Notes: generated by a model not told the origin, from the sequence alone. A DNA stretch of 64,000 bases from Escherichia coli (GCF_003018235.1 NZ_CP027439.1), one strand, 5' to 3'; counted from the first letter of the stretch, positions 12,146 to 43,799 are shown. Numbers and translations are program-made.

Positions 12146-13105
12146 ATGCTGACAAAAGACATTCGCGCGATAGATATACTGGCGAAAGCTGTGGAACTGG
12201 GCAGCCTGCGCCAGGCCGCTCTCGCAAAAGGGGTGACCTCACAGGCCGCCAGCCAGACACTCGCTCAACTTGAAGACTCACTGGGGGTGCGCCTTCTGCA
12301 CCGCACAACTCGCAGCCTCTCTCTGACAGAGGAGGGCAGGCAACTGCTGGAAGCCACACAACCGGCACTGGCGGTACTGGACCGTGCCCTTACGCGTGCA
12401 CGGCAGGCAAAGGACGAGGTTGCCGGTCCGTTGCGTATTGTTGGTCCCCGATCGGCCTTCACACCGGTTTTATGGCCAGTCATTGACGAATACTGCCGGC
12501 GCTACCCGGACGTTCAGCCAGAAGTGCAGCTTGATGACAACGTGGGGGACTGGGTTCTTGATCGAGTGGACGTGGGGTTTCGGTTTGGTTCTCCGCCTGC
12601 AGAGGGGCTTATCGCACGCCCGCTGTTCCGTGCGCAACTGATTATCTGTGCATCACCGGCATACCTCCGCACGCATGGTGTACCCCGTTCGCTGGAGGAA
12701 CTAGCGTACCACCGCTGCAGCGTCTTTCGCCATCCGGGAACGGATGCAATATTTCCCTGGTACGTAAATATAGGGGGAGAAATCCAGACACGAGAGTTTC
12801 CTCCAACCGTGGCAACAAACAGCACAGACATAGAAGTTGAGGCCACGCTGACCGGACAGGTCATCGCACAGCTCTCATCATTGTCCTCAGCTGCGCTGAT
12901 CCGCGCAGGCCGTCTTGTGCCCTTACTAACAGAGCATGTGGCCAGCCACCTTCATCTGTACGCTTACTACGGGAGCCGCAAAGCGCAGCCGCTGCGGGTC
13001 AGAAAATTTATCGAGCTCGCCGTCGAACGGTTAACGGACAACCGGGAGCTGACTCTGACTACAGATGAACTGCAGACGTATTCTGCTGAAAGGCTGAACC
13101 AGTAA
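12146..13105 (+). CDS. LysR-family transcriptional regulator
   Basis: HTH plus LysR substrate domain. Divergent from the ADH-Dabb-SDR operon. Confidence 0.9.
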   Translation: MLTKDIRAIDILAKAVELGSLRQAALAKGVTSQAASQTLAQLEDSLGVRLLHRTTRSLSLTEEGRQLLEATQPALAVLDRALTRARQAKDEVAGPLRIVGPRSAFTPVLWPVIDEYCRRYPDVQPEVQLDDNVGDWVLDRVDVGFRFGSPPAEGLIARPLFRAQLIICASPAYLRTHGVPRSLEELAYHRCSVFRHPGTDAIFPWYVNIGGEIQTREFPPTVATNSTDIEVEATLTGQVIAQLSSLSSAALIRAGRLVPLLTEHVASHLHLYAYYGSRKAQPLRVRKFIELAVERLTDNRELTLTTDELQTYSAERLNQ

Positions 13106-29238: not shown

Positions 29239-29560
29239 TTTCAGTTATGTGGCCTCAGCGTCGTGTGCGGGCTGTGCCGTGCCTCCAACTTAGCCGGGTT
29301 GGCGTTGATGCAAGGGTACGCTTCGCCGCTGCGGTCACCCGGTCCCTCCTTCCCGTCTGCCGTGATTTTCCGGTCGTTCACCCGCTCAGATTTCGCGGTA
29401 TCACCCTCCAACTCCCGTCAGCCGAGTGCGTCAGGCTGCGGCTTCCCTTGCGCCCCTGCATCCCCGCCTTATCGCCCGGCTTTTATGGAGGCACGGCACC
29501 GCCCGGTGTCGCGGAATATGTGAACAACGGAGGAAATCCCATGCAGTATGCGAAACTCCC

Positions 29561-29986
29561 ATGCAGTATGCGAAACCTGTCACTCTGAACGTTGAAGAGT
29601 GCGACCGTCTGTCTTTTCTGCCTTACCTGTTTGGCCTGGATTTTCTGTATGCCGAAGCGTCTGTATACGCGCTGGCGAAACAAATGATGCCGGAATATCA
29701 GGGAGGTTTCTGGCACTTCATCCGCCTGCCGGACGGTGGCGGTTACATGATGCCGGATGGCGACCGTTTCCACATGGTGAACGGTGCAAACTGGTTTGAC
29801 CGTACCGTGAGTGCTGATGCCGCAGGCATCATTCTGATTTCCCTTGTGATTAACCGCCAGTTGTGGCTGTACCACGACAGCGGGGATGCAGGACTGACCC
29901 AGCTTTACCGGATGCGCGATGCGCAGTTGTGGCGTCACATCGAATTTCACCCTGAATGCAACGCGATTTACGCGGCACTGGACTGA
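29561..29986 (+). CDS. Antirestriction-like protein (YfjX/Antirestrict family), leading region
   Basis: 141-aa acidic protein of the family usually found in IncF leading regions. The start is preceded by a 20-bp tandem duplication that separates it from its SD. Confidence 0.55.
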
Positions 29987-30455: not shown

Positions 30456-30643
30456 ATATCAGCACGGAAACCCGCGAAATTCTGCGCAATTACAAAGCCG
30501 TGATTAATGCGTGGCGTCGTGAAATGGGACAGAAACCGCTCACCACCGCACAGATTGTTGATGAAATCTGCGATTTTGTGGCGAATCAGCAGGCGGTTTT
30601 CCTCGGTGGTCACTACATCCTTCAGGGCAGCAGAAACAGGTGA
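30452..30643 (+). CDS. Hypothetical small protein
   Basis: Coupled to the preceding ORF (ATGA overlap). Confidence 0.45.
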   Translation: MNISTETREILRNYKAVINAWRREMGQKPLTTAQIVDEICDFVANQQAVFLGGHYILQGSRNR

Positions 30644-31400
30644 TACAGGGGCAGGCGGTGGAGGCCGCCTGTCAGCCCGCGCGAAAACCCCTGGCAGGCT
30701 GACGCCTGCCGGAAGGGAAGCGGGCCACGCTGACGCGTCGCCCGTTACCCTTCCTGTTTGTGATGTGCCCGGAATGTTTTTTTCTGATGTTATTTTTCTG
30801 TGGTTACCGTGCTTGTTATTGTTCTTCTTCTTTTTCCTCTTCCTCTTCTTTCCGTTCCTCTCCTGTTTATGGCTTTTCCGGGCGTCCCCCTGACGGGGCG
30901 GGCTGTCGTGAACGGAGCCAGCGAAGCTGTCTCCGCCCTGGCGGGCTTCCATCCCTGACGCGAAACCCTGGCTTGCAGCGACCGTTCCGGTCGCGCCGCC
31001 TCTGTCGCGCCGTGGCCTGCGCTCCTGGCATCCCGGCAAAAGGCCGCCGGGATGTAAGGGGCAACGCCGTTTCGCGCACGCGCTCTCCGTCGTTGCGGCG
31101 GGCCCCTGCTCATTGCCTGCCGGGTGCCACACACCCGTATGAGTCCCTGTCGCCGGGGGCTGAGACAGCCACAACCTGCCGCACTGACTGTCCAGGGTAA
31201 ATGAACAGCCCACAAAATTTTTTACCCAAAAACCGGTAAAAAATTTTGCGTTCTGCCCAGGACAGGTGCGTCAGGCCGTGGCAGTGATGCCCCTTGCGGC
31301 GAAGGTTCTCAAACGGGTGAAGTTCATACCACAGGGAATACAGCAGCAGGTTCCCGCGAAACGTCAAAACCGCGGCTCCCGAAACTCAACGGGTGATGTT
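30640..31400 (+). repeat. Leading-region repeat copy A (Frpo/ssi-like single-strand promoter element)
   Basis: Near-identical to 34130..34700 and 39680..40130. Contains the 14-bp-stem hairpin caaaattttttacc-N8-ggtaaaaaattttg. Confidence 0.75.
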
Positions 31401-31907
31401 CTTTAAAAATCAGGATTTATTTCAGCCTCCGGCAATACGCATTTATTTGTTCTGTCAGTCATCCGGCTGACAGGTAATGAGAACGCAGGAACAGAAGGAG
31501 GAAAACACCGGAAAGCGTCAGATGCAGATATGAAAAAAGCAGGTCAGGGACCTGCTTAATCCATGCCGCAGAGACTGCACGAACAGTTTTTGCGGCTCCA
31601 GTCAATCGTCATAAGAGGCTAAATTATGACAATAAGTATTGTTTCACCTTCCGCAGCGGCTGTAAAGCCCCGCCGTCATCCCCGTTTCAGACGCGAAGAC
31701 ATCCCCGCGCCGGAAATTGACCCCGTGCTGAAAGCCTTCGGGCGACACATAGCCCGGAGTTTTCACCGGGGGCGTGGTGCACACATCCCCGCCATGAAAA
31801 ACACGGCCTTCGGGCAGGTGCTCCGCACACTCGAACTGAAACGCGCTTTTAACTGATGAGGTGAGCCGCCCCGCGAGGGGCGGCAACAGACGGAAGGAGA
31901 ACATTTT

Positions 31908-33269
31908 ATGACATTAGCAGCAATCACCATGACCGCCCCGGAAGCCGCCAGCCCTGTGCAGATGTACCGCGCGACCTACTCACCGGATGACAACAAACTG
32001 CGCCTGTATGCCGCGTCACGTCTTGACCCGGAGACGTATAAGAAAGTCCATGATGCCGGTTTCCGCTGGGCACCAAAACAGGCGCTGTTTGTCGCGCCAG
32101 CTTGGACACCGGGCCGGGAAGATGTGCTCCTCTCACTTGCCGGAGAGATTGAGGATGAAGACAGCACACTCGCTGAACGTCAGGAAGCACGGGCGGAGCG
32201 GTTTACTGGATACAGCGGAAAGCGGGCCAGTGAATCCGCACAGGCACTTGATGAAGTGGAAAGACTGGCCGCGATGATCCCGCCCGGTCAGCCCATTCTT
32301 GTGGGGCATCACAGCGAACGCCGCGCCCGTCGTGATGCGCAGCGTATTGAAAACGGCATGAAACGTGCTGTGATGCTCTTTGAACGTGCAGAATACTGGG
32401 AAGAGCGGGCGCGCTCGGCACTGCTTCACGCGAAGTATAAAGAACGTCCGGACGTTCGCTGGCGTCGTATCAAAAAAATCGAAGCTGATTTGCGCAAGTC
32501 TGAAAAGACCATCGCGCAGTCGCAGAAATATCTGACGATGTGGCGGGCTGAATCGCTGGATCTGAATATGGCAAAACTCATCAGCAGTCATGACCATATC
32601 AGCGCCTGTTTCCCGCTGGATACGTATCCGCGCCCGGCAGAAAAAAGCCAGTATGAAGGAAGTCGCTCGTTATGGTCGGCCCTGGATGATGACATCATCA
32701 CCACGGAGCAGGCCCGTGAAATTGCGATCCGCTGTCATGAACGGCAGATTCAGCGTCAGCAACGCTGGGTTAACCACTATCAGAACCGCCTGATCTATGA
32801 GCGTGCCATGCTGGACGAAAGCGGCGGCGTGGTTACCCGGACACAGGATTTTGAGCCGGGCGGACAGGTTTTCAGCCGGGGTGAGTGGCTGACCATCATC
32901 CGCGTGAACAAAAGCAACGGGGCGGTGAGTTCAGTCACAACGCCAAATTACAGTTTTCTCGGGTACAGCGGCACGATGAAAGTGACGCCCGATCGCATCA
33001 CGGACTACAAAGCACCATCGGCAGAAGAGGCTGCCGTCGCCAGCCAGGCCGCGAAGCGTCCGCCGGTAGTCAACTATCCGGGGGAAGGTTTCCGGGAAAT
33101 GACAAAGGCACAGTGGGCCGCCCTGCCCCGGGACTGTAAGGCCGTGCGCAGTGTGGCAGAAGCAGAAGACCACGGGGCATACCGCTACCGCCGCACAATG
33201 GACAATAATTTCCGTCTGGTGAATGTGTATATCACCGACATGAAAATTACGGAAATCCCACAGAAATAA
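31908..33269 (+). CDS. Leading-region conserved hypothetical protein (453 aa)
   Basis: Long ORF with SD ggagaa upstream. Lies immediately upstream of the methyltransferase, as in F-like plasmids. Confidence 0.6.
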   Translation: MTLAAITMTAPEAASPVQMYRATYSPDDNKLRLYAASRLDPETYKKVHDAGFRWAPKQALFVAPAWTPGREDVLLSLAGEIEDEDSTLAERQEARAERFTGYSGKRASESAQALDEVERLAAMIPPGQPILVGHHSERRARRDAQRIENGMKRAVMLFERAEYWEERARSALLHAKYKERPDVRWRRIKKIEADLRKSEKTIAQSQKYLTMWRAESLDLNMAKLISSHDHISACFPLDTYPRPAEKSQYEGSRSLWSALDDDIITTEQAREIAIRCHERQIQRQQRWVNHYQNRLIYERAMLDESGGVVTRTQDFEPGGQVFSRGEWLTIIRVNKSNGAVSSVTTPNYSFLGYSGTMKVTPDRITDYKAPSAEEAAVASQAAKRPPVVNYPGEGFREMTKAQWAALPRDCKAVRSVAEAEDHGAYRYRRTMDNNFRLVNVYITDMKITEIPQK

Positions 33270-33315
33270 GGTATATCCCCCCGGGAAATCCCCGGGGGAT
33301 GACGGAGATAATGAC

Positions 33316-33879
33316 ATGCACAGTCAGTTAAAAGAACGTATCCGGCTGATGCGCGCAAGGCTGGATAACGCCGCGCCGGTTGCTGAAATCCGGGCTGAAT
33401 CTCAGCTTTTTGTGACTCCTGCCCCGGTCTGTGATCGCCTGGTGACGCTGGCGGAGATCAGCAACCGTGATCACATTCTGGAACCCTCTGCCGGCACCGG
33501 GGCCATACTGCGGGCGATTCGGGATACCGCGCCGGGGGCCATGTGTGATGCGGTGGAAATCAACAGCGGGCTGGTCCGGTATCTGCGGGAAAATTTTAAC
33601 GGTGTCAGGGTTCAGTGTGGCGACTTCATGGAATGGCAGCCGGTGCAGTATTACAGCCGGGTTATCATGAATCCGCCGTTCAGCCACGGGCAGGATATCC
33701 GGCATATCCTGCGGGCCTTTTCCCTGTTGCGTCCGGGTGGCGTGCTGGTTGCCGTCTGTCTGAACGGGCCGCGCCAGCAGGAGAAGCTGTTACCGTTTTC
33801 TGACGTCCGCGAGGAGCTGCCACGCGGCACGTTTGCTTATACCGATGTTCCGACGATGATTATTCGTCTGCGTGCCTGA
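33316..33879 (+). CDS. Orphan SAM-dependent DNA methyltransferase (N6-adenine/N4-cytosine class, NPPF motif)
   Basis: Motif I EPSAGTGA and motif IV NPPF. No restriction endonuclease partner is present. Confidence 0.8.
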   Translation: MHSQLKERIRLMRARLDNAAPVAEIRAESQLFVTPAPVCDRLVTLAEISNRDHILEPSAGTGAILRAIRDTAPGAMCDAVEINSGLVRYLRENFNGVRVQCGDFMEWQPVQYYSRVIMNPPFSHGQDIRHILRAFSLLRPGGVLVAVCLNGPRQQEKLLPFSDVREELPRGTFAYTDVPTMIIRLRA

Positions 33880-33884
33880 TGACT

Positions 33885-34700
33885 CCGGGCAGGCGGGAGG
33901 ACAAATGCCCGTCTGCCCGCGCCGGGAAAAGACCGCGCGCCGGTGGCGCTGAAAGGGGCCGCGCTCACGCGCCGCCCCTTACATTACGCGGACATTCTGC
34001 TGTGGGCTTCTGTCTTTTCAGACCTGTCATTTGTCTGTTACTGATGATGTTGTTGTTCCTGCTACTGCTACTGCTACTGCTACTGCTACTGCTACTGCTA
34101 CTGCTACTGTTCTTCTTTTTTCTGCTGTTCTGATTACTGCCTGTTTTGTTGTTCTCCTGCTTATGCCTTTTCCGGGCGTCCCCCTGGCGGGGCGGGCTGT
34201 CGTGAACGGAGCCAGCGAAGCTGTCTCCGCCCTGGCGGGCTTCCATCCCTGACGCGAAACCCCGGGCTTGCAGCGACCGTTCCGGTCGCGCCGCCTCTGT
34301 CGCGCCGTGGCCTGCGCTCCCGGCATCCCGGCAAAAGGCCGCCGGGATGTAAGGGGCAACGCCGTTTCGCAAACCGCGCTTCACGTCGTTGCGGCGGGTC
34401 CCTGTCCGTTGTTGTGTCCGGTGCCATTCACCTGTTTAAGCCCCTGTCGCCGGGGGCTGATACAGCCACAACCGTCTCCGCCAGTCCAGGGGTGAAATGT
34501 ACATCCCGCAAAACTTTTTGCCCAAAAGCAGGCAAAAACTTTTGCGGTCTGCCCCCGGACAGTCGTTTCCGGCCGTGGCAGTGATGCCCCTTGCGGCGAA
34601 GGTTCTCAAAAAGGTGATGGTGAATACCGGAGGGAACAAAAGGCAGGTCCCCGCAAAACGTCAAAACCGCGGCTCCCGAAACTCAAAAGATGATGGGGGC
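33885..34700 (+). repeat. Leading-region repeat copy B (Frpo/ssi-like) immediately upstream of ssb
   Basis: Shares a ~450-bp core with copies A and C. The hairpin variant caaaactttttgcc-N8-ggcaaaaacttttg carries a compensatory base-pair change. Confidence 0.75.
34058..34102. repeat. Hexanucleotide microsatellite (CTGCTA) x 7.5
   Basis: Perfect tandem repeat inside copy B. Copy A has a CTT-rich tract at the equivalent position (30817-30861). Confidence 0.9.
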
Positions 34701-34728
34701 TGAAAACATCAACAGAAGGAGGCACATC

Positions 34729-35558
<830 letters not shown>

Positions 35559-35621
35559 GAGAGGTGCCGGACGGGAACGCGTCCGGCAGACATACAACCA
35601 TCCCGGTCAAAGGAGAAATAT

Positions 35622-37580
35622 ATGTCAGTTACAGAGTCTAAGACAAAAACGGAGCGTAAATCCAGCCGTAAACCTGCAAAAACGCAGGAAACAGTCCTGT
35701 CTGCCCTGCTGGCGCAGACGGAGGAAGTGAGCGTGCCGCTGGCCTCACTGATTAAATCACCGCTGAATGTGCGCACGGTGCCGTATTCTGCGGAGTCCGT
35801 CAGCGAACTGGCGGACTCCATTAAAGGCGTCGGCCTGTTACAGAATCTGGTTGTTCATGCCCTGCCAGGTGACCGTTACGGTGTCGCCGCAGGTGGTCGC
35901 CGACTGGCTGCACTCAACATGCTGGCAGAGCGTGGCATCATTCCGGCTGACTGGCCTGTCCGTGTGAAGGTCATTCCGCAGGAGCTGGCGACGGCGGCAT
36001 CAATGACTGAAAACGGTCATCGTCGGGATATGCACCCTGCTGAACAGATTGCCGGATTCCGCGCAATGGCGCAGGAAGGCAAAACACCTGCACAAATCGG
36101 TGATTTGCTGGGCTATTCACCCCGCCATGTCCAGCGAATGCTGAAACTGGCAGATCTTGCGCCTGTCATCCTCGATGCGCTGGCAGAAGACCGCATCACC
36201 ACCGAACACTGTCAGGCGCTGGCACTGGAGAACGACACCGCGCGTCAGGTGCAGGTGTTTGAAGCCGCCTGCCAGTCAGGATGGGGTGGAAAACCGGAAG
36301 TGCAGACCATTCGTCGTCTGGTGACCGAAAGTGAAGTGGCGGTGGCGGGGAACAGTAAATTCCGCTTCGTGGGGGCTGATGCCTTCTCGCCAGATGAACT
36401 GCGCACCGATTTGTTCAGCGACGACGAGGGTGGCTATGTGGACTGTGTTGCGCTCGATGTCGCCCTGCTGGAAAAACTCCAGGCTGTCGCAGAGTTCCTT
36501 CGGGAAGCCGAAGGCTGGGAATGGTGCGCCGGACGTATGGAGCCTGTTGGTGAGTGCCGTGAGGATGCCGGAACATACCGCTGTCTGCCGGAGCCGGAAG
36601 CGGTGCTGACGGAGGCGGAAGAAGAACGCCTGAACGAACTGATGGCACGTTACGACGCGCCGGAAAACCAGAGTGAGGAATCCGACCTGCTGGAAGCCGA
36701 AATGAAGCTGATGCGCTGCATGGCGAAGGTCAGGGCGTGGACGCCGGAGATGCGTGCCGGAAGTGGCGTGGTGGTGTCCTGGCGTTATGGCAACGTGTGT
36801 GTCCAGCGTGGTGTGCAGTTGCGCAGTGAGGATGATGTGGCTGATAACGATTACCGCACGGAACAGGTGCAGGAGAAAGCCTCAGTGGAGGAAATCAGTC
36901 TGCCGCTGCTGACGAAAATGTCCTCAGAGCGCACGCTGGCAGTCCAGGCGGCACTGATGCAGCAATCAGACAAATCCCTGGCACTTCTGGCATGGACACT
37001 CTGTCTGAATGTATTTGGCAGTGGAGCGTACAGCAATCCCGCCAGAATCCGCCTGGAATGTGAGCATTATTCGCTGACCAGCGATGCGCCGTCAGGGAAG
37101 GAAGGTGCCGCATTCATGGCGATGATGGCAGAAAAAGCCCGTCTTGCCGCCCTGCTGCCGGATGGATGGGCACGGGATATGACGACGTTCCTGTCACTCA
37201 GTCAGGAGGTGCTGTTATCACTGCTCAGTTTCTGCACCGCGTGCAGTATCCACGGTGTCCAGACCCGTGAGTATGGTCACACGTCACGCAGTCCGCTGGA
37301 TTCGCTGGAAAGCGCCATCGGCTTTCACATGCGCGACTGGTGGCAGCCGACAAAAGCAAACTTCTTCGGACACCTGAAAAAGCCGCAGATTATCGCAGCC
37401 CTGAATGAGGCAGGACTGTCCGGTGCTGCACGGGACGCGGAGAAGATGAAGAAAGGCGATGCGGCTGAACATGCAGAGTTCCACATGAAAGACAACCGCT
37501 GGGTGCCTGGCTGGATGTGTGCACCACGCCCACAGACGGATGCCACTGAACGCACCGATAACCTGGCTGATGCCGCCTGA
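35622..37580 (+). CDS. ParB-like nuclease domain protein (leading-region 'ParB-like' protein)
   Basis: N-terminal ParB/Srx domain (…VRTVPYSAESVSELADSIKGVGLLQNLVV…GGRRLAAL). 652 aa. Confidence 0.75.
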   Translation: MSVTESKTKTERKSSRKPAKTQETVLSALLAQTEEVSVPLASLIKSPLNVRTVPYSAESVSELADSIKGVGLLQNLVVHALPGDRYGVAAGGRRLAALNMLAERGIIPADWPVRVKVIPQELATAASMTENGHRRDMHPAEQIAGFRAMAQEGKTPAQIGDLLGYSPRHVQRMLKLADLAPVILDALAEDRITTEHCQALALENDTARQVQVFEAACQSGWGGKPEVQTIRRLVTESEVAVAGNSKFRFVGADAFSPDELRTDLFSDDEGGYVDCVALDVALLEKLQAVAEFLREAEGWEWCAGRMEPVGECREDAGTYRCLPEPEAVLTEAEEERLNELMARYDAPENQSEESDLLEAEMKLMRCMAKVRAWTPEMRAGSGVVVSWRYGNVCVQRGVQLRSEDDVADNDYRTEQVQEKASVEEISLPLLTKMSSERTLAVQAALMQQSDKSLALLAWTLCLNVFGSGAYSNPARIRLECEHYSLTSDAPSGKEGAAFMAMMAEKARLAALLPDGWARDMTTFLSLSQEVLLSLLSFCTACSIHGVQTREYGHTSRSPLDSLESAIGFHMRDWWQPTKANFFGHLKKPQIIAALNEAGLSGAARDAEKMKKGDAAEHAEFHMKDNRWVPGWMCAPRPQTDATERTDNLADAA

Positions 37581-37634
37581 TGAACAACCACACCGCCCCG
37601 CCGGAGACGGGGCGGCAGCAAGGGAGATACCGTG

Positions 37635-38069
37635 ATGAAAACTGAACTGACCCTGAATGTATTACAGACCATGAACGCACAGGAATATGAAGATATCCGG
37701 GCTGCCGGAAGTGATGAACGCCGTGAGCTGACTCACGCCGTGATGCGGGAGCTGGATGCGCCGGATAACTGGACGATGAACGGCGAGTACGGCAGCGAGT
37801 TTGGCGGCTTTTTCCCCGTCCAGGTCCGTTTCACGCCTGCCCACGAACGTTTTCACCTGGCGTTATGTTCACCGGGCGATGTCTCTCAGGTCTGGGTGCT
37901 GGTTCTGGTGAATGCCGGTGGTGAGCCGTTTGCGGTGGTTCAGGTACAGCGGCGGTTTGCACCGGAAGCCGTCAGCCATTCACTGGCACTGGCGGCGTCA
38001 CTGGATACGCAGGGGTACAGCGTTAACGACATCATCCATATCCTGATGGCGGAAGGAGGTCAGGTATGA
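37635..38069 (+). CDS. psiB: Plasmid SOS inhibition protein PsiB
   Basis: [41 protein letters not shown]… is near-identical to my recollection of F PsiB. Confidence 0.9.
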
Positions 38070-38785
38070 GCGTACGTTCACAGGCACTGGTTCCCCTCAG
38101 CACAGAGCAACAGGCCGCATGGCGGGCGGTGGCGGAGACAGAAAAACGCCGCCATCAGGGTAACACGCTGGCGGAATATCCGTATGCGGGGGCGTTTTTC
38201 CGCTGTCTGAACGGAAGCCGCAGGATATCGCTGTCTGACCTGCGATTTTTCATGCCGTCCCTGACCGCAGAAGAACTGCACGGCAACCGTCTTCAGTGGC
38301 TGTATGCAGTCGATGTGCTGATTGAAACACAGGGCGAGGTCTGCCTCCTTCCCCTTCCCGGTGATGCAGCAGAGCGGTTGTTTCCGTCGGTGCGGTTTCG
38401 TGTCAGGGAGCGCAGTCGCCATAAATCCGCGCTGGTCATGCAGAAGTACAGCCGCCAGCAGGCACGGGAGGCAGAGCAGAAAGCCCGTGCGTACCAGGCG
38501 CTGGTCGCTCAGGCTGAAATCGAACTGGCATTCCATTCGCCGGAAACAGTCGGAAGCTGGCATGCACGCTGGAGTGACCGGGTGGCAGAGCATGACCTGG
38601 AAACCCTGTTCTGGCAGTGGGGCGAGCGTTTTCCGTCACTGGCCGGAATGGAACGCTGGCAGTGGCAGGATATGCCGTTCTGGCAGGTTATTGCGGAAGC
38701 CAGTCTTGCAGCAAGAGAGGCCGGTCACGCTGTCCGTGAGATGGAGCGGTGGATGGTGCCGAACAAACTCCGGGAGGCTGCGTGA
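38066..38785 (+). CDS. psiA: PsiA
   Basis: 239-aa protein translationally coupled to psiB, in the expected position and size. Confidence 0.85.
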
Positions 38786-38989
38786 TGCGGCAACAATCAC
38801 ACAGATTACCCGTAAACAGCCTGAATGAGCGGGTTATTTTCAGGAAAAGTGAGTGTGGTCAGCGTGCAGGGATATGGGCTATGATGTGCCCGGCGCTTGA
38901 GGCTTTCTGCCTCATGACGTGAAGGTGGTTTGTTGCCGTGTTGTGTGGCAGAAAGAAGATAGCCCCGTAGTAAGTTAATTTTCATTAAC

Positions 38990-39060
38990 CACCACGAGGC
39001 ATCCCTATGTCTAGTCCACATCAGGATAGCCTCTTACCGCGCTTTGCGCAAGGAGAAGAA
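38990..39060 (-). ncRNA. sok: Sok-like antisense RNA of the hok/mok module (approximate)
   Basis: Inferred from the hok/mok arrangement. Sok is antisense to the mok translation-initiation region. Boundaries are not determined from sequence. Confidence 0.35.
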
Positions 39061-39219
39061 GGCCATGAAACTACCACGAAGTTCCCTTGTCTGGTGTGTG
39101 TTGATCGTGTGTCTCACACTGTTGATATTCACTTATCTGACACGAAAATCGCTGTGCGAGATTCGTTACAGAGACGGACACAGGGAGGTGGCGGCTTTCA
39201 TGGCTTACGAATCCGGTAA
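39007..39219 (+). CDS. mok: Mok (modulator of killing) overlapping reading frame
   Basis: 70-codon ORF overlapping hok in another frame, as in hok/sok loci. Confidence 0.6.
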
Positions 39220-39223
39220 GTAG
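39065..39223 (+). CDS. hok: Hok/Gef-family type I toxin (FlmA/Hok)
   Basis: [52 protein letters not shown], 52 aa, matches Hok as far as I recall it. Not in the ORF track because it is shorter than 60 aa. Confidence 0.9.
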
Positions 39224-39439
39224 CAACCTGGAGGCGGGCGCAGGCCCGCCTTTTCAGGACTGATGCTGGTCTGACTACTGAAGCGCCTTTATAAAGGGGC
39301 TGCTGGTTCGCTGGTAGCCCCTTTCTCCTTGCTGATGTTGTACGGGCATGAACAACCTGACTTCAGGAAGATCGTTTCCCTTCAGGAACGGGGATGAACG
39401 CGCGCCTGCGGCGCCCGTTCTTTTCCCCCGCCTTCTCTG

Positions 39440-40130
39440 GTTATGGCCTGTCAGAAATCACATCACCTTCCCTGTGATTATTCTCTTTTTCTTCCTGCTC
39501 TGATTCTGACTACTGCAGTGTTGTCCTGTCTGCTAGGCGCACCTTCGGCTCCCGGCTGCCTGGCGGCATCCGGTCGTCAGGCCCGACTCCGACAGGCAGC
39601 TGCTGGCGCACCTGCCAGTCTCCGCCGAACCCGCTGGCGCGGTTTCGGGCTGTCGCTACGGTCCGATGCGTGAAAACCACAGGCTTGCAGCGACCGTTCC
39701 GGTCGCGCCGCCTCTGTCGCGCCGTAGCCTGCGCTCCCGGCATCCCGGCAAAAGGCCGCCGGGATGTAAGGGGCAACGCCGTTTCGCAAACCGCGCTTCA
39801 CGTCGTTGCGGCGGGTCCCTGCCCGTTGTTGTGTCCGGTGCCATTCACCTGTTTAAGCCCCTGTCGCCGGGGGCTGATACAGCCACAACCTGCCGCACTG
39901 ACTGTCCAGGGTAAATGAACAGCCCACAAAATTTTTTACCCAAAACCCGGTAAAAAATTTTGCGTTCTGCCCAGGACAGGTGCGTCAGGCCGTGGCAGTG
40001 ATGCCCCTTGCGGCGAAGGTTCTCAAACAGGTGATGGTTAATACCGGAGGGAACAAAAGGCAGGTCCCCGCAAAACGTCAAAACCGCGGCTCCCGAAACT
40101 CAACAGATGATGGGGGCTGAAAACCAGAGA
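39440..40130 (+). repeat. Leading-region repeat copy C (Frpo/ssi-like), upstream of the DUF905/DUF932 genes
   Basis: Near-identical to copy A across 39680-40130, including the hairpin. Confidence 0.75.
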
Positions 40131-40137
40131 AAGCAGG

Positions 40138-40425
40138 ATGAGTACCCGAAATATCCACGTTAACACCGCGTCGTACACGCTTCTTGTTGCCGGGAAGAAA
40201 AAAAACACCGGGGAAGAGTGGGACGTCCTGGAATTCAGCAGCCTGACTGAGCTGAAAAAATATCGCAAAAGCCACCCGGAAAAGATGGCCTTCAGCTATA
40301 GCTACGCGCTCAGCCAGGGTGTGGATACGCAGTTCCGCCATATCAACATTGCGGAAGCTGATCACTTCAAACAGTTCCTGCGTCAGATTAAGCGTGCCGG
40401 CCTCGATATCCGGGCGATCTGCTGA
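40138..40425 (+). CDS. Leading-region small protein (DUF905-like)
   Basis: 95-aa ORF immediately downstream of repeat C. Confidence 0.55.
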   Translation: MSTRNIHVNTASYTLLVAGKKKNTGEEWDVLEFSSLTELKKYRKSHPEKMAFSYSYALSQGVDTQFRHINIAEADHFKQFLRQIKRAGLDIRAIC

Positions 40426-40542
40426 CCGGATGTGATGAATATCCCTCCTGATTGTTGCAATGTTGTTAATGGAGAACGGGGGGATGATATTAAGCGGAAA
40501 AATTTTTTATTAAATTTATTCTTTCATAAAGGAGTAGCTGTT

Positions 40543-41364
40543 ATGCGATTAGCTTCCCGTTTTGGTCGGTATAATTCCATCCGCCGTGAACGTCCTTTAA
40601 CGGATGATGAATTAATGCAGTTCGTGCCTTCGGTATTTTCCGGTGATAAACATGAGTCCCGGAGTGAACGTTATACGTATATTCCAACAATCAATATCAT
40701 CAATAAGTTACGTGATGAAGGTTTCCAGCCATTCTTTGCCTGTCAGAGTCGGGTTCGTGATTTGGGGCGTCGGGAATACAGTAAATATATGTTACGTCTT
40801 CGTAGGGAAGGGCATATTAACGGGCAGGAAGTTCCTGAAATTATCCTGCTTAATTCACATGATGGTTCATCCAGTTATCAGATGATCCCGGGAATTTTTC
40901 GTTTTGTCTGCACAAATGGCCTGGTGTGCGGAAATAATTTTGGCGAAATCCGCGTTCCACATAAAGGTGATATTGTCGGGCAGGTTATCGAGGGAGCGTA
41001 TGAAGTGCTCGGTGTCTTTGATAAGGTCACTGATAATATGGAGGCAATGAAAGAAATTCATCTTAACAGTGACGAGCAACATTTATTTGGCAGAGCTGCC
41101 CTGATGGTCAGGTATGAAGATGAAAATAAAACGCCGGTGACGCCTGAACAGATAATTACTCCCCGTCGTCGGGAGGATAAACAGAACGATCTCTGGACAA
41201 CCTGGCAGCGGGTTCAGGAGAATATGATAAAAGGTGGATTATCGGGGCGAAGTGCCTCCGGGAAAAATACCAGGACAAGAGCCATTACAGGTATTGATGG
41301 TGATATAAGAATCAACAAAGCATTATGGATGATTGCCGAACAGTTCAGGGAGTGGAAGTCATGA
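40543..41364 (+). CDS. DUF932-domain protein (leading region)
   Basis: SD aaggag lies 8 nt upstream. The family is typical of IncF leading regions. Confidence 0.7.
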   Translation: MRLASRFGRYNSIRRERPLTDDELMQFVPSVFSGDKHESRSERYTYIPTINIINKLRDEGFQPFFACQSRVRDLGRREYSKYMLRLRREGHINGQEVPEIILLNSHDGSSSYQMIPGIFRFVCTNGLVCGNNFGEIRVPHKGDIVGQVIEGAYEVLGVFDKVTDNMEAMKEIHLNSDEQHLFGRAALMVRYEDENKTPVTPEQIITPRRREDKQNDLWTTWQRVQENMIKGGLSGRSASGKNTRTRAITGIDGDIRINKALWMIAEQFREWKS

Positions 41365-41660
41365 TAATATAAGTAAAGCCCCGAAAAATTTTTCGGGGCT
41401 TTACTTATATTATCATCCTGCGGCATTGCTATGTCGTCTGATATGCCTCAATTTCATCAACTGGCTTTTCGGTAGTATGTAAATATTGTGCCCGCGAAAA
41501 ATGGTCTGGCAGGAGGCTGCGCAGTTACCGGATATATATAAGATGGGTTCCCGCTTTGCGGGGCTTCGGCCAGTCAGTATTGTCACTCATATGATATTTT
41601 TGTGTGTGGCCTTCCATGCCGCTTTTGCGGCATAACCGATATCTGACAATGTCTGTAAGA

Positions 41661-42170
41661 TTAATTGTTCTGCACGCTGTTAATTTCCGGAAGTGATTTC
41701 TTCGTGGTCGGAACCTGGATGCCTTTACTGCTCTTTATCCCGGTATAAATCCGGTAAACCTCTGATGCGTAGGCAAGACGTCTCTGGTTCTGGCGTTCGG
41801 TCTTCCTGAATCCAGCATTGTATGCACCAACGGCCTCCCAGGAGACGCCCCATTTTTTAAAGGCTATTGCCAGATAATAAGCACCGGTATAAATGTTCAT
41901 GCAGGGATCTGTTGTCAGATGTTCCGGCTTAATTCCATAGCGGGCCAGTTCGTTAAAATGCTGGGAATCTACCTGCATCAGTCCGCTGCCATATCCCGTT
42001 ACCGGATTAATACCGATGGCATTAACCCGGTAACGGGATTCTTTCCATGATATTGCTCTCAGTAAATCAGGATCTATTTTGTAATCCCGGCCTGCAAGAT
42101 CAAAGCAATCAGTGGCATGGCAGATCTCATTTATAAACATCAGGCAGATGGCTAACATCCATTTTTTCAT
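41661..42170 (-). CDS. Lytic transglycosylase (F orf169/geneX-like SLT domain), secreted
   Basis: Signal peptide [15 protein letters not shown] motifs (…ISWKESRY… GLMQV… AYNAG). Start chosen at MKKWML with SD aggtgg. Confidence 0.85.
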
Positions 42171-42244: not shown

Positions 42245-42290
42245 TCACCACCAAAAGCACCACACCCCACGCAAAAACAAGTTTTTGCTG
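42245..42290 (-). promoter_or_regulatory. oriT: F-type oriT nick region (nic between 42261 and 42262 on the minus strand)
   Basis: The reverse complement reads gcgtggggtgt|ggtgcttttggtggtgagaaccacc, matching the F oriT nic sequence. Confidence 0.8.
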
Positions 42291-42923: not shown

Positions 42924-43029
42924 AAGAAATTTGACTTCGTTCAAATATCAGAGTTTTTATGATTTAAAAGGGTGACAGTACGAAAGATAATTAGTATATT
43001 AATTACGTGGTTAATGCCACGTTAAAATT

Positions 43030-43108
43030 TGAATTTGAAAATCGCCGATGCAGGGAGTTCACGTCTCCCTGCATCGACTGTCCATAGAATCCTTTGTGAG
43101 GAGGTTCC
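43030..43108 (-). ncRNA. finP: FinP antisense RNA (approximate), antisense to the traJ leader
   Basis: Stem-loop gatgcagggag-ttcacgtc-tccctgcatcg in the traJ 5' UTR, as in F FinP/traJ stem-loop I. Ends are not defined. Confidence 0.45.
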
Positions 43109-43109
43109 T

Positions 43110-43799
43110 ATGTATCCGATGGATCGTATTCAACAAAAACATGCTCGTCAAATAGATCTGCTGGAAAATCTGACGGCAGTTATTCAGGATTATCCAAATC
43201 CAGCCTGTATCAGGGACGAAACTGGAAAATTTATTTTTTGCAATACGCTGTTTCATGAGTCATTTCTTACACAAGATCAAAGTGCTGAAAAATGGCTTCT
43301 GTCGCAGAGAGATTTTTGTGAATTGATCTCTGTCACAGAGATGGAAGCATACAGGAATGAGCATACGCATCTTAATCTTGTAGAGGATGTTTTTATTCAG
43401 AACAGATTCTGGACAATATCTATTCAGTCATTTCTTAATGGACACAGAAATATCATTCTGTGGCAATTTTATGATGCTGCTCATGTTCGTCATAAAGACA
43501 GTTATAATCAAAAAACGATTGTCAGTGATGATATCAGAAATATAATCAGAAGAATGAGTGATGATTCTTCTGTATCATCATATGTAAATGATGTCTTTTA
43601 CTTATATAGCACCGGAATCAGTCATAATGCTATAGCAAGAATATTAAACATATCCATCTCCACATCAAAGAAACACGCGTCTCTGATATGCGACTACTTC
43701 TCTGTTTCTAATAAAGATGAGTTAATCATCTTACTCTACAATAAAAAGTTTATTCATTATTTGTACGAGAAGGCTATGTGTATCATAAATACGCGTTAA
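43110..43799 (+). CDS. traJ: TraJ (transfer operon activator)
   Basis: SD gaggagg lies 5 nt upstream. 229 aa. AT-rich coding sequence typical of traJ. Confidence 0.85.
   Translation: MYPMDRIQQKHARQIDLLENLTAVIQDYPNPACIRDETGKFIFCNTLFHESFLTQDQSAEKWLLSQRDFCELISVTEMEAYRNEHTHLNLVEDVFIQNRFWTISIQSFLNGHRNIILWQFYDAAHVRHKDSYNQKTIVSDDIRNIIRRMSDDSSVSSYVNDVFYLYSTGISHNAIARILNISISTSKKHASLICDYFSVSNKDELIILLYNKKFIHYLYEKAMCIINTR

Follow-up and report, generated by a model that had tools for sequence, protein, structure and literature searches.

[quoted passage not shown] The ssiD sequence (D90178) is the one that originally defined Frpo. When Frpo1 or Frpo2 is lost by deletion, there is no early expression in transconjugants; in vivo, the ssb-psiB operon depends on Frpo2 and ygeA/ygeB depend on Frpo1, and the elements, silent in donors, are needed for expression ahead of strand conversion (PMC9849209). 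The transcription start sites of class-1 elements, as this family is called, have been mapped by 5' RACE (PMC12672017), and ssp1/Frpo transcripts serve as primers of conversion in vivo (bioRxiv 10.64898/2026.01.09.698686). Frpo/ssi hairpins are already known and commonplace, occurring on thousands of plasmids, and the published catalogue of Frpo homologues holds more than 13,000.

The IncI1 plasmid ColIb-P9 also carries three dispersed direct repeats (~328 bp), ssi1, ssi2 and ssi3, each heading a leading-region operon. At the minus-strand origin of M13/f1, host sigma-70 RNA polymerase recognizes a promoter-like hairpin on single-stranded DNA covered by SSB, where it synthesizes a primer RNA, but this filamentous-phage element differs in yielding a short primer only, with no mRNA, and its sequence is unrelated. 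The hairpin logic of class 1, in which a long transferred-strand hairpin rebuilds the promoter boxes and drives an anti-defence operon, is found in class 2 (ssp2, upstream of klcA/ardB and ardA) and class 3 (ssp3, upstream of an M.EcoGIX-type methylase). Unlike class 1, ssp2 is also a replication roadblock (bioRxiv 10.64898/2026.01.09.698686).

We analyzed a 64,000-nt stretch of Escherichia coli DNA (GCF_003018235.1, NZ_CP027439.1; hereafter the window), in which a preliminary description had noted three GC-rich repeats with a shared hairpin. Homology to elements of F and ColIb-P9 makes it very probable that these repeats belong with the Frpo/ssi elements, the class-1 single-strand DNA promoters, the promoter activity itself being assigned by analogy with those plasmids.

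Results

The window contains the leading region of an IncF-type plasmid. The F-type oriT nick-region motif GGTGTGGTGCTTTT is matched exactly at 42253-42266 on the minus strand, at what we take to be the F nick site, and the traJ 5'UTR/FinP lies at 43005-43116. Because the motif is on the minus strand, the minus strand is the transferred strand, which is the complement of the strand quoted in the preliminary description. The leading genes, according to ORFs and the RefSeq annotation of a relative, are all on the plus strand.

Search with nhmmer gave exactly three copies in the window, with a GC content of 0.59-0.61 against 0.50 for the window as a whole. Copy A (30814-31413) and copy B (34108-34710), both on the minus strand, were delimited by repeat families (D1-D5 for copy A), alignment, DNA fold, a hairpin map and homology to ssiD; copy C (39674-40127, also minus strand) was delimited by repeat families, alignment, fold, ssiD homology and mosaic analysis. 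Repeat search and alignment mapped a core of ~452-454 bp in all three (30962-31413, 34257-34710 and 39674-40127), to which copies A and B add ~150 bp in common only with each other (30814-30971 and 34108-34265). A weaker similarity between A and B reaches back to the left ends originally assigned to them. The length first given, about 600-700 bp, suits A and B well enough but is generous for C, since the left part of C (39440-39673) has only a pyrimidine-rich tract in common with the other copies, and the three-way core is ~450 bp. All copies have the same orientation, each facing an operon templated by the transferred strand, and they lie ~2.3 kb (C), ~7.7 kb (B) and ~11.0 kb (A) from the nick, that is, from the entering 5' end.

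We then compared the copies with reference ssi and ssiD sequences (PMC11541004 supplementary file 4). Copy B is 96.3% identical to F ssiD over 352 nt on the minus strand, and copies C and A are 87.9% and 78.5% identical to it (~340-355 nt). F Frpo1 and Frpo2 belong to the same family, with the same orientation as here. The ColIb-P9 elements share with the copies a homologous upper stem and an A/T-rich tip, but differ in that only the central ~100 nt, the upper stem, aligns by BLAST (76-80% identity over 79-118 nt), the sequence of the lower stem and of the small 3' hairpins being unlike that of the copies here. The three repeats have no sequence homology to ssp2 or ssp3, and their membership of class 2 or class 3 was rejected; the window does have a class-2-like hairpin, at 29252-29512, and this is the sole match of the class-2-like candidate sequence, none of the three repeats being hit.

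The preliminary description had pointed to a conserved 14-bp stem, which proved to be merely the tip of a longer hairpin. DNA folding of the transferred strand gave stable structure well past this stem in every copy, a result that upholds the preliminary reading in the folding check proposed with it: the main hairpins lie at 31076-31376 in copy A (-129.5 kcal/mol, z = -8.5), 34364-34682 in copy B (-127.3 kcal/mol, z = -7.5) and about 39778-40117 in copy C (-137.6 kcal/mol, z = -10.2). These imperfect hairpins span 301-340 nt with the tip stem at the apex, in line with the stable imperfect stem-loop of ~328 nt expected for class 1. In a 300-nt sliding fold across 18-43 kb, the deepest minima were the three copies (-85 to -95; scan mean, -42 +/- 13). 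The minus strand folded better than the plus strand by 7-13 kcal/mol in all three copies, the plus strand still reaching -114 to -127 kcal/mol, and in the homologue alignment G·T pairs outnumbered A·C pairs on the transferred strand by 155 to 74; these asymmetries are modest and partly biased, the test structure having been taken from copy C. The strand that folds is thus the transferred one, from which the downstream genes are also templated, and this is the class-1 orientation.

At the apex, CAAAATTTTTTACC-N8-GGTAAAAAATTTTG matches exactly twice, at 31213-31248 (copy A) and 39927-39962 (copy C), with zero chance matches expected (100 shuffles). The same motif forms the tip of F Frpo2 and recurs verbatim in the Frpo2 fragment of F with which anti-CRISPR expression was obtained off the transferred strand (PMC11541004 supplementary file 11). 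The tip of copy B (34509-34544) is a variant, CAAAACTTTTTGCC-CAAAAGCA-GGCAAAAACTTTTG, in which both of the changes reported earlier were read again. One is compensatory, an A to G change at left-arm position 12 being paired with a T to C change at right-arm position 3; the other places a T to C change at left-arm position 6 opposite an A to C change at right-arm position 9, giving a central mismatch, C·C when read on the plus strand and G·G when read on the transferred one. The difference between the A/C tip and the B tip counts as one evolutionary event, the entire central block having passed between copies in one piece, its two arms included.

We next asked how the stem behaves among 16 homologues, whose diversity was drawn from published sequences and three loci; a PsiB-based search of genome contigs gave 7 loci only, several of them likely contaminants. 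Changes on both sides were seen in 38 of 126 pairs, and 76.8% of cells were paired, compared with 39-49% when the partners were slid. The covariation score was 0.176, a value that none of 500 shuffles reached; it was 0.101 when shuffled and at most 0.081 with slid partners. Compensatory changes maintain the hairpin across F-like, IncI-like, Serratia, Cedecea and metagenomic homologues, suggesting that the stem is kept by selection, as would be expected of the class-1 family. A plasmid search aimed at distant matches gave at least 5000 near-identical records, and a search for an Rfam family of the repeat element found none.

The -35 and -10 boxes could be placed in two ways. One candidate, on the 5' arm beside a 3x4 internal loop, is TTGAGA-N17-CATCAC, which would read toward the loop. 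On the 3' arm the candidate is TGGACA or else the conserved 8-nt bulge TTCATTTA, and here the promoter would point away from the loop. None of these boxes is consistent across the family. When the 16 homologues were scanned with a sigma-70 weight matrix, no -35/-10 pair was positionally conserved, and the strong match TTGAGA-N17-CATACT is present in the old ssiD entry only, where RefSeq F reads CATCACT. Arm-by-arm conservation favours neither placement. Likeness to the class-2 hairpin, which has TAAGTT in a 4x4 loop of its 3' arm, tends to favour reading away from the loop.

Copy A is followed by a plus-strand operon at 31626-33879 (ORFs, Pfam, RefSeq annotation of a relative), comprising a 76-aa ORF (31626-31856), a DUF3560 protein (31908-33269; Pfam DUF3560, 3.9e-37) and a class I SAM-dependent methyltransferase (33316-33879; Pfam methyltransferase domains). 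At least 4841 plasmid records carry this operon, which F lacks. The plus-strand operon after copy B, at 34729-38785 (ORFs, RefSeq annotation of relatives), begins with ssb (ATG at 34729) and a small DUF905-type gene and continues with a ParB-like gene (35622-37580), psiB (37635-38069) and psiA (38066-38785). After copy C, at 40138-41364 on the plus strand (ORFs, Pfam), come a 95-aa ygeA-like gene (40138-40425) and a ygeB-like DUF932 gene ending at 41364. The neighbors of Frpo1 and Frpo2 on F therefore match those of two copies here. Of the DUF905 and DUF932 genes originally assigned to copy C, DUF932 stands (Pfam, 3.6e-51), but the 95-aa gene has no Pfam DUF905 match; it is a ygeA homologue that RefSeq labels hypothetical.

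Each copy had been said to lie immediately upstream of its operon. This holds for B and C, which stop ~20 nt short of the ssb ATG and ~10 nt short of the 40138 ATG, respectively, but is loose for A, whose end is ~215 nt from the first ORF (31626) and ~495 nt from 31908. Because of this ~215-nt gap and the antisense RNA gene AS-pc01 inside it, copy A is coupled less directly to the DUF3560/methyltransferase operon than B and C are to theirs. No match to a sigma-70-type double-strand promoter was found between the repeats and their operons.

Discussion

Location, strand, homology to the experimentally defined ssiD and to ssi1-3, extended fold and compensatory evolution all agree with the Frpo/ssi-type reading of the preliminary description. 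By analogy with F and ColIb-P9, the repeats would work as follows. During conjugation the minus strand would enter the recipient led by its 5' end, beginning at the nick near 42.26 kb, so that C, B and A arrive in that order and ~300-340 nt of each folds back on itself as a long imperfect hairpin with an A/T-rich stem of 14-16 bp at its tip. The hairpin would rebuild a duplex sigma-70-type promoter with local mismatches, at which host RNA polymerase could initiate and copy the transferred strand toward its 5' end, giving ygeA/ygeB-like, ssb-parB-like-psiB-psiA and DUF3560-methyltransferase mRNAs. The same transcripts could prime complementary-strand synthesis, and once that strand is made the hairpin would be ironed out and the promoter turned off. 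Promoter activity, SSB stimulation, priming and shut-off are all taken from the published F and ColIb-P9 homologues, for which RNA polymerase is known to initiate on single-stranded DNA and not on the duplex.

Inverted repeats fold in transcripts as well, the plus strand folds stably, and the upper hairpin would be transcribed under one of the promoter placements, so we asked whether the hairpins might act as RNA: mRNAs started at ordinary double-strand promoters lying further upstream could contain them as structured 5' leaders, attenuators or processing sites. We consider this very unlikely, since the minus strand, the DNA template, has the more stable fold in each copy, G·T pairs outnumber A·C pairs 2:1 on that strand, no match to an upstream double-strand promoter is present, and the F homologues are required before conversion and silent in donors (PMC9849209). 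Slightly less credible still is a view of the repeats as selfish or structural elements, akin to MITEs or REP palindromes, or as recombination scars, that do not act as promoters here. The copies are indeed mosaics of one another, F has an A/B hybrid without the intervening 3.3 kb, one hairpin has been cleanly lost in a relative, and IncI plasmids gain and lose a 9.7-kb leading module via repeats (PMC3817090). Such repeats would hardly all face an operon on the transferred-strand template, however, and near-identity to a functionally proven element, a stem evolving by compensation and the lack of visible target-site duplications at the repeat ends led us to reject the MITE-like reading.

ORFs of 68-311 aa overlap the repeats on both strands; RefSeq places a 68-aa 'hypothetical protein' over the right arm of copy B in some relatives and calls a minus-strand ORF in F. 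That these ORFs encode proteins is the least plausible of the alternatives, and we rejected it, as the preliminary description had done in calling them almost certainly artefacts. Their frames and lengths are unlike between the three homologous copies, the ATG of the 68-aa ORF of B meeting a stop after 12 codons in A, and none has a Pfam family at the curated cut-off: four of the five have no match at E <= 0.01, and the fifth gives a sub-threshold SR-25 only (16.9 bits, cut-off 40). The region is also unannotated in most records among the matches listed.

As single-strand promoters, the hairpins would explain how anti-SOS, anti-restriction and single-strand-binding genes are expressed seconds after entry, before the plasmid is double-stranded, and such early expression is central to the establishment of resistance plasmids. 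Our results leave current understanding unchanged. Their value is for annotation: three non-coding regulatory elements, at sites of occasional spurious ORF calls, are placed, the transferred strand of the window is fixed, and the DUF3560/methyltransferase module here comes under a class-1 promoter, a putative assignment by homology.

The copies are recombination mosaics, copy C reading B|A|B, and F Frpo2 is a hybrid of A on the left and B on the right. The plasmid here carries three copies and F two; the extra copy, A, heads the DUF3560/methyltransferase module. F is without this 3.3-kb A-to-B module, which is a cassette flanked by direct repeats, and carries the A/B hybrid instead. The central block of ~100 nt, which takes in the tip and the two arms, travels between copies undivided, and therefore two tip alleles, A-T-rich and G-C-rich, are found at different loci in different plasmids: here ssb has the G-C tip and ygeA the A-T tip, and in F the arrangement is the opposite. 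Repeat-mediated rearrangements are likewise documented for ColIb-P9/IncI1. It is possible, though we would not bet on it, that class-1 repeats double as recombination joints, swapping leading-region operons while gene conversion keeps the hairpins intact. If the tip alleles differ in promoter strength or replisome passage, their exchange would retune early-gene timing. In a relative, NZ_CP091041.1, the main hairpin upstream of ygeA has been lost, and this copy is therefore dispensable in some backgrounds.

The three repeats and their setting

The window holds exactly three copies of the GC-rich repeat by profile search, and the preliminary description of three hairpin repeats is confirmed. Repeat finding and three-way alignment define a common core of ~452-454 bp, at 30962-31413 (copy A), 34257-34710 (copy B, before ssb) and 39674-40127 (copy C, before a ygeA-like gene). 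A and B share ~150 bp more, and a fainter likeness farther left; in its left part, copy C has only a pyrimidine-rich tract in common. The repeat segments are indeed GC-rich, with 59-61% G+C vs 50% for the window. The previously quoted pattern, a 14-bp stem around an 8-nt loop, is exact at 31213-31248 in copy A and 39927-39962 in copy C (chance expectation, none), and copy B reads CAAAACTTTTTGCC-CAAAAGCA-GGCAAAAACTTTTG at 34509-34544. As had been proposed, an A-T pair has become G-C in copy B through alteration of both arms, and a second paired change leaves a C·C mismatch in the plus strand.

Tracts that are purine-rich on the transferred strand lie beside all three copies. A perfect (CTGCTA) x 8.5 microsatellite (34059-34109) adjoins the upstream edge of the conserved part of copy B, a (TTC)n/pyrimidine-rich tract occupies the matching relative place in copy A (30822-30861), and a tract resembling the latter is found at 39480-39530 in copy C.

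The region is matched by >5000 enterobacterial plasmids at 80-99% identity. Judged by the RefSeq annotation of relatives and of F, the gene order is the one usual for an IncF leading region: antirestriction gene, DUF1380, ssb, ParB-like, psiB, psiA, hok, ygeA/ygeB-like, transglycosylase and traM. Rfam places sok at 38891-39067 and the traJ 5'UTR with FinP at 43005-43116. The F-type nick-region motif GGTGTGGTGCTTTT, which marks the F nick site, has an exact match on the minus strand at 42253-42266, which makes this the transferred strand. It is also the template for all leading genes. From the entering end, copy C is ~2.3 kb away, copy B ~7.7 kb and copy A ~11.0 kb.

The copies had been placed immediately upstream of their operons, which fits copy A only loosely, since a gap of about 215 nt precedes the first ORF (31626). 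In this gap sits an AS-pc01 antisense RNA gene ('Antisense to pHK01_035'; 31534-31631, minus; Rfam 109.6 bits, gathering score 79), lying antisense to the beginning of the 76-aa ORF. A terminator-like hairpin (31557-31537) and a promoter-like site (31666-31638) accompany it. The DUF905 label given to the gene after copy C is not upheld, as its 95-aa product has no DUF905 match in Pfam.

A long hairpin on the transferred strand

When the minus strand was folded as single-stranded DNA, every copy gave a single long, imperfect hairpin of 301-340 nt, with the stem noted earlier (16 bp in A and C) as its tip. Fold energies were -129.5 (A), -127.3 (B) and -137.6 (C) kcal/mol, with z-scores against shuffles of -8.5, -7.5 and -10.2, and in all three copies the minus strand folded better than the plus strand by 7-13 kcal/mol. 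Scanning the transferred strand over 18-43 kb with a 300-nt sliding fold placed the deepest minima at the three copies (-85 to -95 vs a mean of -42 +/- 13 kcal/mol). Every copy is thus predicted to have extended structure past the 14-bp stem, and the condition set beforehand for refuting the promoter reading, a lack of such structure, fails. The 3' arm carries a conserved 8-9 nt bulge, TTCATTTA or TACATTTCA, adjoining the duplex of highest conservation (CTGTCCGGGG / CCCCTGGACAG); a 3x4 internal loop, likewise conserved, lies farther down the hairpin.

Small, perfectly conserved hairpins, CATCCCGGCGGCCTTTTGCCGGGATG and GCGACCGGAACGGTCGC, occur in 30962-31075, 34257-34363 and 39674-39777, 3' of the main hairpin on the transferred strand. 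In those Salmonella candidates that have an otherwise diverged main hairpin, the GCGACCGGAACGGTCGC hairpin and its GCAAGCC flank show 93% identity.

We aligned 16 sequences (copies A-C, F ssiD, ColIb-P9 ssi1-3, Escherichia ruysiae, Escherichia sp. and Cedecea loci, and published Serratia and insect-metagenome candidates) and counted pairing and covariation on the copy C structure. Cells were paired in 76.8%, vs 39-49% with partners slid. Both sides had changed in 38 of the 126 pairs (shuffle mean 26.8), mostly in the upper and middle stems, and the covariation score was 0.176 vs 0.101 shuffled (0/500 reached 0.176) and at most 0.081 slid. On the transferred strand G·T outnumbered A·C by 155 to 74, a count that is partly biased because the structure was derived from one of the aligned sequences.

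Identity with Frpo/ssi promoters

Measured against the reference sequences of Samuel et al. 2024 (supplementary file 4, PMC11541004), identity to F ssiD, from which Frpo was defined, is 96.3% over 352 nt for copy B, 87.9% for copy C and 78.5% for copy A. In the upper stem, identity to ColIb-P9 ssi1-3 is 76-80%. The A/C tip motif is also present verbatim in the F Frpo2 fragment with which the same study expressed an anti-CRISPR gene off the transferred strand. As summarised in later papers, Masai and Arai (1997) showed in vitro that single-stranded Frpo adopts a stem-loop carrying -35 and -10 boxes, on which RNA polymerase, with SSB, produces transcripts that can also prime DNA synthesis. F deleted for Frpo1 or Frpo2 loses its early expression in transconjugants (PMC9849209). 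The extended fold, its conservation and the identity with ssiD/ssi support the reading of the repeats as Frpo/ssi-type single-strand promoters.

Frpo homologues number 13,089 across 6,006 conjugative elements (Samuel et al. 2024, PMC11541004); Wen et al. 2025 (PMC12672017) made Frpo/ssi1-3 their class 1, introduced classes 2 and 3, and located start sites by 5' RACE; a 2026 preprint reports that ssp1/Frpo primes in vivo (bioRxiv 10.64898/2026.01.09.698686); and three recombining Frpo repeats in the IncI leading region were reported in 2013 (PMC3817090). Both the element and its multiplicity had thus been described before, and the repeats are an ordinary, well-characterised feature of IncF/IncI-type plasmids.

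Where the promoter boxes lie can be read in two ways, and no -35/-10 pair scored consistently over the family among the homologues scanned. Candidate boxes on the 5' arm, TTGAGA-N17-CATCAC beside the 3x4 loop, would send the polymerase up and round the loop; with boxes on the 3' arm (TGGACA, or the 8-nt bulge) it would leave the loop behind. The latter direction, away from the loop, is also that of a fourth transferred-strand hairpin (29252-29512, minus), upstream of the antirestriction gene at 29561-29986. This hairpin has 31-nt arms (29268-29298 and 29475-29505), with TAAGTT inside a 4x4 internal loop ~16 nt after a TTGCAT-like box; the fold reaches a z-score of only -2.6. It matches ssp2, the class-2 promoter described ahead of klcA/ardB in F, and shares 85% identity with the published candidate Frpo'4.

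Two further features follow the DUF932 gene. Directly 3' of it, a perfect 28+28 nt palindrome without spacer (ATGATAATATAAGTAAAGCCCCGAAAAA / its complement, 41361-41416) probably serves as a bidirectional terminator; it also gave rise to weak, spurious Rfam matches to microRNAs and a His leader. Between this gene and the transglycosylase gene, 41478-41666 (minus) matches F ssiE, a single-strand initiation site different from Frpo/ssiD, at 96% over 190 nt.

Open reading frames over the repeats

The ORFs within the repeats had been dismissed as artefacts, and we agree: they are not conserved among the copies and belong to no Pfam family. RefSeq nonetheless lists 'hypothetical proteins' over or beside the hairpin in some relatives (window 34497-34703, plus; NZ_CP091041.1 locus L001 7040-7246; F locus L009 9808-10164, minus), including one of 68 aa over the copy B right arm. 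Since copies A and C have no counterpart and no Pfam family matches, these annotations look like artefacts.

Recombination among copies

At diagnostic sites, copy C (39738-40136) is a B|A|B mosaic of the other two. Of the F copies (L009 10214-10640 and 15603-16030), Frpo1 is wholly B-type, and Frpo2 has an A-type centre with a B-type right end. A central block of ~100 nt moves between copies as a whole, both arms and tip included; the compensatory pair in copy B is therefore real, yet counts as one comparison. Relative to the window, F carries the A-T-rich and G-C-rich tip alleles at swapped loci (ssb vs ygeA), which implies exchange between paralogous copies. F also runs from a 63-aa ORF directly to ssb with one hybrid repeat, lacking the 3.3-kb DUF3560/methyltransferase module. 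At least 4841 plasmid records carry that module, which makes F the exception.

A relative, NZ_CP091041.1, has cleanly lost the main hairpin ahead of ygeA (L001 ~12190-12260; window counterpart 39734-40085). The deletion runs between short direct repeats, GCGCTCCCG / GCGGCTCCCG, and spares the small upstream hairpins as well as the ribosome-binding region.

PsiB 97-98% identical to that of this E. coli-type plasmid was also found on short contigs filed as Ferruginibacter, Streptomyces morookaense, Oscillibacter and Chryseobacterium (L002, L003, L004, L008), most likely contamination of those assemblies.
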